Source of the DNA: an uncultured Candidatus Actinomarina sp. | Lineage (GTDB): Bacteria; Actinomycetota; Acidimicrobiia; Actinomarinales; Actinomarinaceae | DNA: 64,000 nt | Reading direction: 5' to 3' | NCBI GenBank assembly: GCA_902625455.1 | Contig: CACOBL010000001.1 | Coordinates: 244,191 to 308,190, forward strand | Shown here: one piece after another, positions 21,297-56,399 of the stretch | Layout of the letters: each line of letters opens with the position of its first letter | How positions within the stretch are numbered: the first letter of the stretch is position 1 | Notes under the pieces: model-generated | What the model was told of the DNA's origin: nothing | Databases searched by the model: none | The model's input: the letters and a program-made list of their open reading frames with translations, nothing else | Translations under genes and position numbers: made by a program

Positions 21297-22209
21297 TTAA
21301 AAAGCTATTAATCTCATCTAATAGTTCATCTGCGTGTGTCCACGGAACAGAGTGACCAGCGTCATTAATAACTTTTGACTTAACAGTATTTAAGCGACTT
21401 ATAACCTCACTAGATGTTTCTTCAGGAACTAATTTATCTTTACCACCAGTTATTACAAGCGTGTCAGAGTTTATTTCATGAATCCAAGGTCTTGCATCGT
21501 AAGGTACAACAAACCTTCCTCCATCACCATATATAAAATCATCTTTCGACCTATGTAGATTGTTCCAAGCCCACTCCGTATACTCATCTTCAATAGATTG
21601 GGATTTCCTTAAGAAAGAAAATTTTGATTTAGGATTAAAATTTGGAAAGAGTCTTTCCCGAATTCTTACAAAACTTATAAATATCTTAAATGCGATCTTA
21701 TCACTATAAACAGCACCACCTAACCAACTAAATGGGGTTATTAAAACTAATTTTCTAATCAAAGATTGTTTTTTTCTTGCAACGGACATGCCAACAGCAC
21801 TTCCCATCGACCAGCCAACAATATCACACTCTTCTATATCAAGTTTTTCTAAAATACTTATAACTAAATCTGCATTCTCGTCTACATCCCATCTTTTCCA
21901 ACTTGAATCTGATTTTCCGTGATTTCTTAAATCAATTGCAACAAATGAGTTTTTATTTTTAATTTTAGGCAAAATTTTAAACCAACTGCCTAACGAATCT
22001 GATCCCCAGCTATGTAAGAAAACGATTGGAACTGTTCCTTCGACATATGACTCTCTAATGAAATACTCTTTCTCTCTTATAAAAATAGTTCTTCCAGGAA
22101 ACTTACTTGGATGAATTTGAGTATTGCCAGTAACATCACCTTTTTTTGTTTCAAGCAAATTCTTTAAAATTGTTGCAAAAGCAAAAAATTTAGTAATTGT
22201 TTTTATCAT
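21286..22209 (-). CDS. Alpha/beta hydrolase fold protein
   Basis: HG oxyanion motif (VFLHSWGSD), nucleophile elbow GWSMG, and a distal Asp/His. Confidence 0.75.
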   Translation of the reverse strand: MIKTITKFFAFATILKNLLETKKGDVTGNTQIHPSKFPGRTIFIREKEYFIRESYVEGTVPIVFLHSWGSDSLGSWFKILPKIKNKNSFVAIDLRNHGKSDSSWKRWDVDENADLVISILEKLDIEECDIVGWSMGSAVGMSVARKKQSLIRKLVLITPFSWLGGAVYSDKIAFKIFISFVRIRERLFPNFNPKSKFSFLRKSQSIEDEYTEWAWNNLHRSKDDFIYGDGGRFVVPYDARPWIHEINSDTLVITGGKDKLVPEETSSEVISRLNTVKSKVINDAGHSVPWTHADELLDEINSFLNDE

Positions 22210-23246
22210 TTGTTGTTAATGATATTGACTTTATTTTTATATCTAGAAACAATATCTCCAATTTCCCATAGATTTATTCCAAATCTATTTGATATATCTT
22301 TGACATTTATTGAATTATCACTTGGTGCTGAAATTAATAATCCACCGCTTGTTTGAGCATCTGATAAAATTTTTACAAAAGATTCCTGATCAGAGTTGTA
22401 AATTATATTTTCTTTAGCTAAATCAAAATTTCTTATAGAGCCTGAAGGATAAATTCCATTGTTAAAATATTCATTTGCGTATTTAATAACAGGTACTTCA
22501 TCTTGGTATATATTTACTGTTACATTGGAATCTCCAATCATTTCTATTAAGTGCCCCAACAGTCCAAAACCTGTGACATCTGTTATAGCATTTGCGTTTA
22601 ATTGTTTGGCAGCTTCAAGTGCTTTGTCATTCAATGTTGACATTACTTCGGTTACTTCATATACCGCTTTATCACTTGCTAAATTTTTTTTAATCGCAGA
22701 AGAGATTATTCCAGAACCTAAGGGTTTTGTTAAATAAAGTTTATCGCCTAATTGAAGATTTCTTTTTTTATAGATAACTTCATTAATTATCCCCATTACA
22801 GCAAAACCATACTTAGGCTCTTTATCGTCAATACTGTGTCCTCCAATGATATTGCATCCAGCACTTTGCATGATTTCTAAACCACCTTTTAAAACCTCAG
22901 ACAGTATTTCAAAACTTAAATCTTCTCTTGGCCATGAAACAAGTTGTAAGGCAGAAATAGGGGTTCCACCCATTGCATATATATCAGATAATGCGTTAGC
23001 GGCCGCAACTTTTCCCCAATCAAATGGGTTGTCTAATATTGGTGTAAAAAAATCGACTGTCTGAACTATTTTCATTCCATTACCAATGTCAATTACTCCT
23101 CCGTCATCAGGCGAATCTAAACCAACTAATATTTGTGAATTGTCGGAATTATTTTGTTTTTTAAAATGCGTCAGTACCTGAGCAAGCTCTTTTTGAGAGA
23201 GTTTACACGCTCAACCAGCACCATGTGAGTACTCAGTTAACCTCAT
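22206..23246 (-). CDS. selD: Selenide, water dikinase SelD (selenophosphate synthetase), selenocysteine-containing; in-frame UGA at codon 12
   Basis: The track ORF (from MKIVQTVDFFTPILDNPFDWGKVAAANALSDIYAMGG) is the PurM-like SelD core. Reading upstream in the same frame (171 nt = 57 codons by ORF-track anchors) reaches an ATG at ~23246-23244 preceded by the SD AAAGGAGG. It translates as MRLTEYSHGAG-[TGA]-ACKLSQKELAQVLTHF..LVGLDSPDDGGVIDIGNGM. The TGA (complement of plus 23211-23213) sits exactly where SelD has its catalytic Cys/Sec (consensus SHGAG-C/U-GCK). The upstream gene's stop is at 23258, so no other start is available. Confidence 0.75.
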
Positions 23247-23257
23247 TTCACCTCCTT

Positions 23258-24073
23258 TTAAGGGCGCTCAATATTTACTTCATCTTTAAATGTTTGTTGA
23301 ATTTCATTAATTAAAGCATGATGAGAATAATTTATTTTATTTATTTTGGATACAGGTATCGCATGTTTTGCAGTTGATAATACAAAAGCACTTTGTATAT
23401 TTTCTAATTCTTCTTCTGCTAGACGCCCAATAGATACCTTTAATTTTTTTTCTTTTCCAAAACGAATTAAGTATCTTCGAGTTATTGAATCAAGAATTCC
23501 GAGATCTAAGTCTGGTACGTGTATATGATCATTTATTATCCATCCGAATGTCCAAGTTGGGCCCTCAAGAATAATATTTTCTCTATTCACAAGTAAAGCG
23601 TCTGTGTATCCATTTGACTCGGCAAATCTTGTATGGCTAATATTCATTGCATACGATGTCGATTTCGTACCTATGTTAAATACATCATCTTCTAAAAAGT
23701 CACCACCACCCTGCCAATATGCTTTTTGAGTTTGCAAAGTAAAATATTCGGGAACATCGATAGGCGGCTGATAAAAGCAAAATACATTAAATGAATCTTT
23801 CTCATTTCTTAAAATTAATGTTCTAACATATCCATTTTGAAAATTTTCTGCCACTAGCAAAATATCTTTTTTAATTTTTTCAAAATTTATGTTGTCAAAG
23901 AATACTTTAGATGCAGATTTTTTAAATCTTTCAATATGTAAATCTATGCCAAACGGATAACCTTCGTGAATTCTAATTGCTTCAAATATTCCATCGCCTC
24001 TCCAAACTCCAATATTCTCTACAGGAAGGGTGAAGTCTTTTTTTTCAACTTGAACTCCATCAATCAAATACAT
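23258..24073 (-). CDS. Class IV aminotransferase family (branched-chain aa aminotransferase / aminodeoxychorismate lyase-like)
   Basis: Fold-type IV PLP enzyme motifs (GDGIFEAIRI, ER...S; C-terminal GI..R..LI). Specific substrate not assignable. Confidence 0.6.
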   Translation of the reverse strand: MYLIDGVQVEKKDFTLPVENIGVWRGDGIFEAIRIHEGYPFGIDLHIERFKKSASKVFFDNINFEKIKKDILLVAENFQNGYVRTLILRNEKDSFNVFCFYQPPIDVPEYFTLQTQKAYWQGGGDFLEDDVFNIGTKSTSYAMNISHTRFAESNGYTDALLVNRENIILEGPTWTFGWIINDHIHVPDLDLGILDSITRRYLIRFGKEKKLKVSIGRLAEEELENIQSAFVLSTAKHAIPVSKINKINYSHHALINEIQQTFKDEVNIERP

Positions 24074-26275: not shown

Positions 26276-26884
26276 TCAAAAATCTTTTTCTTCATCATAA
26301 TCTGTTGGACCAAGAAAATTAAAATTAATTTTTTCAATCTTAATTTCAGATGAAACAAAATAATCAATTAAATCAAAATCTTTGTAAGGTGATATTTCAA
26401 ATTCACCTGGGTCATCTTGTGTCAACAATTCTAACTTTGGCCAAAATTGACGTGGAATCAAAATTGGAAAACCCAACTTATATCTATATTGAGGAATTAC
26501 AATTTTTGAATTATCGATTTCATTACTTTGTAAAGCAGAAATGACTTCATCTTTTACTTCAGGTTGATCTCCTAAGAAAAAAATAAGATTCTCTACTTGC
26601 TTTTGCTCCTGATAAAAAAACAGTGAGGTTCTTATTGATGAAACAATGCCTTCTTCCCAGTTTTCATTTATCAAAATATTTGAATTATGAAAATTAATTT
26701 TTTCTTCAATAATTTCGTTTTCAGATCCTAAAACTACAGTTGAAGACTCAAAGTTTGAATTGACTTTTTCAATAATAATCTCCAACAAAGGCTTGTCTTT
26801 AACTTCGGCAAGCTGTTTTGGAAACCCCATTCTTGTTGAATCTCCGGCTGCAAGTATCACTCCTGCATTCATCTTATGTACCAC
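26276..26884 (-). CDS. MobA-like NTP transferase domain protein (molybdopterin nucleotidyltransferase-like)
   Basis: N-terminal ILAAGDSTRMGFPKQL matches the MobA/MocA/IspD nucleotidyltransferase motif (LAAGxSxRMGxxK). Confidence 0.55.
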   Translation of the reverse strand: MVHKMNAGVILAAGDSTRMGFPKQLAEVKDKPLLEIIIEKVNSNFESSTVVLGSENEIIEEKINFHNSNILINENWEEGIVSSIRTSLFFYQEQKQVENLIFFLGDQPEVKDEVISALQSNEIDNSKIVIPQYRYKLGFPILIPRQFWPKLELLTQDDPGEFEISPYKDFDLIDYFVSSEIKIEKINFNFLGPTDYDEEKDF

Positions 26885-30952: not shown

Positions 30953-31153
30953 ATGAGTGGATCATTAACTGCATCACAAGTTAAGCCGGGTATACGAAGG
31001 TCGAAAAAATACACATCTGGTCGAGTTTGCGCATTTGATACTTGTGAAACTGTTATCAGCGTTTATAACAAAAAGAAGTTTTGTTTTCTGCATGCTCCTA
31101 TCTCCTATCCGAGAGTAAGAGGGCACTTGGCAAGAGAACAAGAACCGACTTAA
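30953..31153 (+). CDS. Small basic CCCH protein (paralog A), first gene of the dnaK locus
   Basis: 66 aa with motif GRVC-x4-C-x12-C-F-x-HAP-x-YPRVRG. About 55% identical to the ORF at 56205..56399. Own SD. 27 nt upstream of dnaK. Confidence 0.6.
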   Translation: MSGSLTASQVKPGIRRSKKYTSGRVCAFDTCETVISVYNKKKFCFLHAPISYPRVRGHLAREQEPT

Positions 31154-53971: not shown

Positions 53972-54204
53972 TCAAGCGCTTCTTCTATGAGCTTAAGAAT
54001 CTCACCATCCTCAGTATGTCTACCTAATTCTTTCTTTGAAAATAATAATTCATCATTCAAGTGAAACTCGAACACACCACCACCACTTGGAATCAAATTA
54101 ATCGATGTTACTTTGTTTCCATAAATTTCTAAGATGTCTTCTATCGTACTAACTGCACGAGGTGTGTAGTTTCAGACTACACAAAACTCTAATTTTATTT
54201 CCAT
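53956..54204 (-). CDS. SelW/Rdx-family selenoprotein (CxxU) with in-frame UGA; not in ORF track
   Basis: Minus-strand ATG at ~54204 translates MEIKLEFCVV-[TGA at ~54174-54172]-NYTPRAVSTIEDILEIYGNKVTSINLIPSGGGVFEFHLNDELLFSKKELGRHTEDGEILKLIEEALD... This matches the Rdx/SelW consensus (IeYC-x-x-C/U ... L.PgsgGvFEv..dgelifSK.e.grfPe). The 3' end overlaps the tauE start by a few codons, and the exact stop is uncertain to +/-3 nt. Confidence 0.7.
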
Positions 54205-54240
54205 AATTTAATAGTATCATAACTTAGATTAAGGAGGTTT

Positions 54241-56204: not shown

Positions 56205-56399
56205 ATGACAGACGGATTAAAAGCGAGTCAAATTAAGGGTGGAATTAGACCTTCAAAGAGTTTTGACCAGGGCAGAGTATGTAAAGATGAAACTTGCACT
56301 ACTCAATTAAGTATTTACAACAAAAGAGATCATTGTTTTAATCATGCTCCGGTTAAATATCCGAGAGTAAGAGGCAGAATCCTTCAAGAAACTGCTTAA
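56205..56399 (+). CDS. Small basic CCCH protein (paralog B), head of the copZ-copA locus
   Basis: 64 aa. Same GRVC-x4-C-x12-C-F-x-HAP-x-YPRVRG architecture as 30953..31153. Confidence 0.6.
   Translation: MTDGLKASQIKGGIRPSKSFDQGRVCKDETCTTQLSIYNKRDHCFNHAPVKYPRVRGRILQETA

Follow-up and report, generated by a model that had tools for sequence, protein, structure and literature searches.

A predicted selenoprotein form of selD in Candidatus Actinomarina and a covarying hairpin downstream of its in-frame UGA

The stretch of DNA analysed here (the window; 64,000 nucleotides with a G+C content of 33%) derives from Candidatus Actinomarina and carries, on its minus strand, a complete gene whose predicted product is SelD (selenide, water dikinase or selenophosphate synthetase). 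The gene is preceded by a class IV aminotransferase gene, the TAA of which (23260..23258) directly abuts the Shine–Dalgarno sequence AAGGAGGTG, and its own stop codon overlaps the start of an alpha/beta-hydrolase gene downstream. Translation of 23246..22206 encounters just one internal stop, the TGA at codon 12, and yields the product MRLTEYSHGAG-*-ACKLSQKELAQVL. Hence, the selD mRNA holds two UGAs, one of which appears to be recoded and the other to be terminating (Table 1). In the following paragraphs, we lay out the evidence that this selD is very probably itself a selenoprotein gene, with UGA-12 read as selenocysteine (Sec).

The mechanical list of open reading frames (ORFs) opens this gene at Met58 (23075) and omits the first 57 codons, as the original prediction, made from the bare sequence, had claimed. 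Its further claims of a strong Shine–Dalgarno sequence and an ATG hard against the stop of the neighboring gene, and of a TGA at codon 12 within HGAG-[U]-ACK, agree with what is read at these positions. It had also proposed a continuous frame, while suspecting a 1-nt discrepancy near 23100: there is neither a frameshift nor a further stop in 23246..22206, and the frame is intact at the suspected site. One of its figures needs to be amended, namely the 171 nt given for the distance from the TGA to Met58; this interval measures 135 nt (45 codons), whereas 171 nt separate the ATG from Met58. The omission extends to public annotations. The 289-residue ORF from Met58 is the public gene call on 16 contigs from single-cell genomes and metagenomes, including the single-cell assembly GCA_902626295.1 (CACOES010000002.1, 215.6 kb) and Tara Oceans metagenomes, and these calls leave a 182-nt "intergenic" gap where selD codons 1–57 belong. 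The public SelD of 289 residues without the catalytic loop should instead be annotated as a protein of 346 residues with a predicted Sec12, and this correction is the main practical benefit of the finding.

Table 1. Positions of selD, its associated sequence elements and the SelW-like gene in the window.
Feature	Position	Strand	Remarks
Complete selD coding sequence	22206..23246	minus	346 codons + stop; codon 12 = UGA (predicted Sec)
Shine–Dalgarno sequence AAGGAGGTG	23249..23257	minus	GGAGG core 4 nt upstream of ATG 23246..23244
In-frame UGA, codon 12	23211..23213	minus	Catalytic position in glycine-rich loop; context HGAG-U-ACK
Lys codon 15, AAA	23202..23204	minus	Aligned with Lys20 of E. coli SelD
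Possible auxiliary hairpin CUCU-CUCAAAA-AGAG	23187..23201	minus	Between UGA and the SECIS-type hairpin; weaker support
Predicted bSECIS hairpin 5'-UGCUCAG-GUA-CUGA(C)GCA-3'	23167..23184	minus	28–45 nt after UGA; covariation and bSECIS model
selD stop UGA	22206..22208	minus	Overlaps ATG of downstream alpha/beta-hydrolase gene (ATGA)
Uncalled SelW/SelT/SelH (Rdx) ORF, 78 codons	53968..54204	minus	MEIKLEFCVV-U-NYTPR..., CxxU

The identity of the protein was established by profile searches, for which the TGA was replaced by Cys. The translation scored 368.8 bits against the SelD equivalog model TIGR00476 (cut-off 125), with residues 2–310 aligned to model positions 1–309, so that the alignment proposed in the original prediction takes in the N-terminus. 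It further scored 347.2 bits against NF002098 (cut-off 299) and matched the Pfam domains AIRS (PF00586; 85.4 bits, residues 47–154) and AIRS_C (PF02769; 68.4 bits, residues 167–340). The best match among solved structures was the E. coli SelD (PDB 3u0o; E = 9e-80), which is alignable over 334 residues and shares both the fold and the motif SHGAG-x-x-C-K. UGA codon 12 aligns with Cys17 of this enzyme, as the predicted catalytic Cys/Sec position would have it, and the Lys that follows aligns with its Lys20, a residue that is essential in E. coli SelD. Therefore, the N-terminal extension corresponds to the catalytic glycine-rich loop of SelD. A second structural match, the Aquifex aeolicus SelD (PDB 2yye, 2zod; E = 2.5e-66), likewise displays Cys in the column of U12 in its crystallized chain, though its N-terminal loop reads SSGCAAK as opposed to HGAGUACK in the window SelD. 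The native A. aeolicus enzyme is a Sec form, crystallized as a Cys mutant. The E. coli enzyme, in contrast, has a Cys where the window gene has UGA and needs no Sec insertion sequence (SECIS) element. Thus, the gene product is SelD by its sequence affinities, with catalysis predicted.

To place this gene in a phyletic context, one genome per prokaryotic species was scanned with the full-length SelD, which returned 80 related loci. The top 52 belong nearly all to Candidatus Actinomarina, Actinomarinales or OCS155 and display 54–89% identity over residues 1–346, with the closest relative of the window SelD at 89% over that entire length. Together with the window gene, they constitute 53 Actinomarinales-type selD genes. 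The other 28 loci come from Acidimicrobiia, Marinimicrobia/Fidelibacterota, Binatia and others. Three of the loci (L029, L034 and L052) feature an Actinomarina-type selD (59–73% identity) in public metagenome-assembled genomes labelled Methanosarcinales, Methanobacteriota and Melainabacteria; these odd taxonomic labels probably reflect binning contamination.

Codon 12 is TGA in all 53 Actinomarinales-type genes, as well as in 27 of the 28 outgroup genes, the exception being a Binatia locus (L065) with TGC, a recurrence well beyond coincidence. The surrounding N-terminal motif, RLTEYSHG[AS]G-U-ACKL, is common to several phyla. The constancy of the TGA stands beside a marked variability of the start codon: among the 53 genes, 20 begin with ATG, 17 with GTG and 16 with TTG, with the Sec TGA in every one, and a GGAGG-type motif is found at the equivalent place in most of these loci. 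Any tool or grouping keyed to an ATG start or to an "MRLT" prefix would consequently overlook about two-thirds of the Actinomarinales selD genes. One might suppose that a Cys codon (TGT or TGC) was turned into TGA by an error in sequencing or assembly. Nothing specific speaks for this, other than the TGC of the one distant relative, but the identical downstream ORF recurs on 16 independent contigs of both single-cell and metagenomic origin and TGA is seen in 79 of the 80 independently assembled loci, which leaves the error with a negligible probability.

The pattern of selection bears on a second alternative, namely that the TGA is a genuine stop and that the locus is either a pseudogene or codes for a truncated SelD-like protein starting from Met58. 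We computed the ratio of nonsynonymous to synonymous diversity (pN/pS) across 51 distinct Actinomarinales coding sequences and obtained 0.095 for codons 2–11, 0.40 for codons 13–57 and 0.35 for codons 58–346. These low values on both sides of the UGA indicate that the codons before as well as after it are translated. Gene callers do report the 289-residue ORF on the 16 public contigs, and the mechanical list starts at the same place; but Met58 is present in just 7 of the 51 sequences, with Gln, Ile, Thr and other residues elsewhere, and a fragment beginning there would be devoid of the loop that aligns with Cys17 and Lys20 of the E. coli enzyme. The strong constraint on codons 2–11, the retention of the TGA and its flanking motif across phyla, and the strong Shine–Dalgarno sequence ahead of the upstream ATG also speak against a genuine stop, which we regard as exceedingly improbable.

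Sec insertion at UGA-12 predicts a bacterial SECIS (bSECIS) element within the coding sequence, for which the original prediction had suggested a search 3' of the TGA. A covarying stem-loop fitting the bacterial model is indeed present there. Its 7 bp are arranged as 4 bp, a single bulged base (C at 23170) and 3 bp, and it shares its sequence with the LAQVLTH codons; its apical loop GUA (23177..23175) opens 33 nt after the UGA. We examined it in a gap-free alignment of 50 distinct selD sequences, covering the UGA with 3 nt on its 5' side and 51 nt on its 3' side, in which RNAalifold predicted a single helix that joins columns 36–39 with 43–46, i.e., the upper four pairs. Pair 36–46 appears as U-A in 28 sequences, G-C in 12, C-G in 7 and A-U in 1, while pair 39–43 appears as G-C in 32, A-U in 13 and G-U in 4; the intervening pairs 37–45 and 38–44 are maintained in 49 and 50 of the 50 sequences, respectively. 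Two of the upper-stem pairs show 20 and 13 double changes. Both the covariation score of the 7-bp stem (0.327) and the count of double changes lie above those of 500 out of 500 shuffles and of all slid registers. In the Actinomarinales hairpins, the lower three pairs are offset by a single bulged base, C or A; with this bulge included, pairing is seen in 98.2% of cells over 24 distinct sequences. The G that opens the loop is conserved to at least 90% in the alignment, and the U after it is invariant.

These base changes are intertwined with the coding capacity of the region. Some compensations are doubly synonymous, with Gln CAG becoming CAA where Leu CUG becomes UUG. Elsewhere, an Ala codon (GCG, GCU or GCC) contributes its third base to a pair whose partner opens the codon following Leu, and the residue encoded there changes in step to Arg (CGC), Ser (AGC) or Gly (GGC); read from the alignment, this is a case of RNA structure dictating protein sequence. 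Synonymous diversity is also reduced across the SECIS codons (pS 0.36 vs 0.63). With respect to the published bSECIS model, which, as quoted in a 2026 review, specifies a loop of 3–9 nt, an upper stem of 4–16 bp, a UGA-to-loop distance of 16–37 nt, a minimum free energy (MFE) of at most −7.5 kcal/mol, and a G within the first two loop positions that is usually followed by G or U (PMC13188914), the window has a loop of 3 nt with G then U, a spacing of 33 nt and an MFE of −9.1 for the 50-nt region, with the hairpin alone at −5.3 kcal/mol. In GC-rich relatives, the 7-bp stem is uninterrupted and reaches −10 to −13 kcal/mol. A search against Rfam, which has no bacterial SECIS model, recovered nothing relevant, either for the whole window at gathering thresholds or for 23100..23260 at E-values up to 10.

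Two further pairings were considered in this region. In one MFE fold, UGAGC (the Sec codon plus 2 bases) paired with GCUCA instead; this was rejected as a conserved element because column 36 covaries with column 46, while the A of the UGA cannot vary. The other is a short auxiliary hairpin located between the UGA and the SECIS-type stem-loop, in which 77% of cells pair in Actinomarinales, with double changes at 2 pairs. Different clades use different registers for it, and conserved Leu (CUC) and Glu (GAG) codons account for its outer pairs, making it no more than a possible element.

We then asked how TGA is otherwise used in the window. It is the normal stop of 7 of the 61 window genes, selD among them, which excludes a reassigned genetic code. 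Among credible genes, an internal TGA was found only in selD and in an uncalled SelW-like ORF, in the latter at the known Sec position of its family; a scan of the window for genes extended through TGA at either end found none beyond these two. The SelW-like ORF matches Rdx (PF10262; 60.4 bits, cut-off 22.6) and TIGR02174 (CXXU_selWTH; 49.7 bits, cut-off 34.2). Its TGA, codon 11 (54172..54174), is kept in all 42 marine-metagenome relatives, in which the codons CGU GCA GUU after the TGA are invariant even at synonymous sites. A candidate SECIS of the form CGUGC-AGUU[A/G]-G[U/C]ACG (CGUGC-AGUUA-GUACG in the window) takes its 5' arm and some of its loop from these codons, and the loop opens 17 nt downstream of the UGA. 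Thus, two unrelated genes with TGA at known Sec positions offer independent evidence for Sec decoding from within the window.

These observations also help to judge whether the UGA of selD could be read through without Sec, by way of a reassigned code (Trp or Gly) or of a near-cognate or Cys-charged tRNA. The genome is AT-rich (33% G+C), like those of many lineages with reassigned UGA, and the Sec machinery is not seen in the window. Against this, TGA terminates the aforementioned 7 of 61 genes and is internal elsewhere only in the SelW-like gene at its Sec position; the homologs feature Cys at position 12, rather than Trp or Gly; a covarying SECIS-type hairpin follows the UGA; and tRNA-Sec(UCA), selA and selB are reported from all complete genomes of the genus (preprint 10.64898/2026.04.03.716425). 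Read-through without Sec is hence very unlikely. Conservation, selection and stop usage jointly exclude that the locus is a pseudogene, that its product is truncated, that the TGA stems from a sequencing error and that UGA specifies Trp or Gly in this code.

The Sec machinery itself was sought in several ways. ARAGORN detected no tRNA-Sec in the window or in the 80 related loci, and the window has no tRNA gene. Pfam annotation and reading by eye revealed no selA, selB, selU or yqeB/yqeC in the 64-kb window, and the 10 kb on either side of selD in the 80 loci yielded no selA, selB or selC. All ORFs of the window and the 80 loci were also screened for motifs of SelA (GDK..GGPQ), the SelB G-domain and YbbB, with no credible match; this is a weak negative. 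At the level of the genus, selA, selD and tRNA-Sec(UCA) are reported in 84 of 84 complete Actinomarina genomes; selB is likewise listed in 84 of 84, but under the KofamScan threshold (268 vs 306), and YbbB is reported as absent (10.64898/2026.04.03.716425).

Certain points weigh against UGA-12 being a Sec codon. First, the evidence for the machinery comes from a preprint that is not peer-reviewed, with a sub-threshold selB, and neither the window nor the 10-kb flanks of selD in the 80 related loci contain any of it. Second, the hairpin is thermodynamically weak (−5.3 kcal/mol) in an AT-rich genome, and its single-sequence folding energy is at the level of shuffled sequences (z = −0.26, −0.07 and +0.09); stability by itself thus speaks neither for nor against a SECIS, and it is the covariation that supports one. 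Third, the assignment of Sec to residue 12 is drawn from sequence rather than from protein-level evidence. Nevertheless, family membership, the alignment with Cys17, the continuous frame and the SECIS-type hairpin all support the interpretation, already proposed in the original prediction, of read-through of the UGA as Sec.

By analogy with the E. coli paradigm, we propose that ribosomes would start at ATG 23246 behind the strong Shine–Dalgarno sequence and meet UGA at codon 12. A SelB·GTP·Sec-tRNA(Sec) complex would bind the apical part of the hairpin 23184..23167 and, with UGA-12 in the A site, Sec would be inserted and translation would run on to UGA 22208..22206, which has no SECIS and would terminate. 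The predicted product is a 346-residue SelD with Sec12 and Lys15 situated in a flexible glycine-rich N-terminal loop. As the active enzyme would make the selenium donor for charging tRNA-Sec, it would need its own product, a dependence that is a known property of organisms with Sec-SelD.

Sec-containing SelD was, according to its citation in a preprint (10.64898/2026.04.03.716425), first described by Guimaraes et al. in 1996. A 2026 review ranks it second among prokaryotic selenoprotein families by breadth of occurrence (PMC13188914), and a stem-loop beside the UGA has been described in SelD/SPS genes across life (PMC4561486). The Actinomarina gene resembles the known Sec-SelDs in its family, in the placement of the UGA at the same catalytic position and in the bSECIS within the coding sequence just downstream. 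Nothing essential differs, except that the SECIS stem of Actinomarinales is AT-rich and weak, with a one-base bulge. Moreover, the preprint in question, posted on bioRxiv in 2026 as "Actinomarina, resolved", reports Sec-selD itself in Actinomarina, and its family with an "MRLT* prefix, 342-346 aa" fits the window protein (MRLT..., 346 residues). The Sec-selD described here is thus an ordinary member of a well-known class that has already been reported for the genus, to which the current analysis adds the location of the selD SECIS hairpin and two likely corrections to that preprint.

The preprint records the Sec form in about half of the genomes, presumes Cys elsewhere and finds no SECIS through Rfam models (10.64898/2026.04.03.716425). 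In contrast, we observe TGA in 53 of 53 genes, 33 of which start with GTG or TTG and hence would have no MRLT prefix, and we locate the SECIS by covariation. With TGA throughout and so many alternative starts, the "Cys half" is more likely to be a start-codon effect; judged from the loci assembled here, as opposed to the preprint's own 113 genomes, it is probably an artefact of this kind.

One of the smallest free-living marine bacteria would thus retain Sec decoding, with the first enzyme of the pathway dependent on Sec, a point already made in the 2026 preprint. SelW-like proteins and SelD are the two most widespread selenoprotein families reported in ocean metagenomes. We raise as a tentative and somewhat doubtful proposition that Sec-SelD is universal in Actinomarinales, that Actinomarina is one of the main contributors to the marine selenoproteome, though not assigned as such until now, and that the arrangement acts as a self-reinforcing, selenium-gated Sec switch. 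If true, the whole Sec pathway of a 1.1-Mb genome would lie behind such a switch, with SelD needing its own product.

The SelW-like gene displays several features of its own. Its Sec-UGA falls within a 5-nt loop closed by an 8-bp stem, UGUGUAGU-CUGAA-ACUACACA (54167..54187, minus), for which the relatives show one compensatory change (G-C to A-U) and, in two sequences, a broken pair. There is no Shine–Dalgarno motif upstream of its ATG (54205..54218, minus). A TAnnAT-like box (GATACTAT or GATAGTAT), conserved in the metagenome relatives, is found about 7 nt before the ATG, which suggests a leaderless transcript. The downstream neighbor is a gene for a TauE/SafE membrane protein (PF01925; 53237..53971, minus), whose TTG start overlaps the SelW-like stop (TTGA) and for which no start codon is present ahead of the preceding TGA. 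Synteny of the two genes is preserved in 42 of 43 metagenome loci. The "K07090" selenoprotein group of the preprint may represent SelW-like ORFs assigned through overlap to this TauE/SafE neighbor, to which K07090 would correspond. Going by length and abundance, the preprint's top, "uncharacterised" 78-residue selenoprotein family is probably the SelW/Rdx protein.

Elsewhere in the window, a gene for a MobA-like nucleotidyltransferase (26276..26884, minus) lies 3 kb from selD. Its best match is MocA/YgfJ, the molybdenum cofactor cytidylyltransferase, at 106 bits against a cut-off of 186; being below this cut-off, it was not linked to selenium. No other genes of the selenium-dependent molybdenum hydroxylase trait were found in the window. 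Finally, two paralogous ORFs of about 65 residues (30953..31153 and 56205..56399, both plus), neither of which matched a Pfam or NCBIfam model, share the Cys/His pattern RVC-x4-C-x13-C-x2-H...YPRVRG. The first of them is located upstream of dnaK and the second upstream of genes for a CopZ-like protein and a Cu-ATPase.

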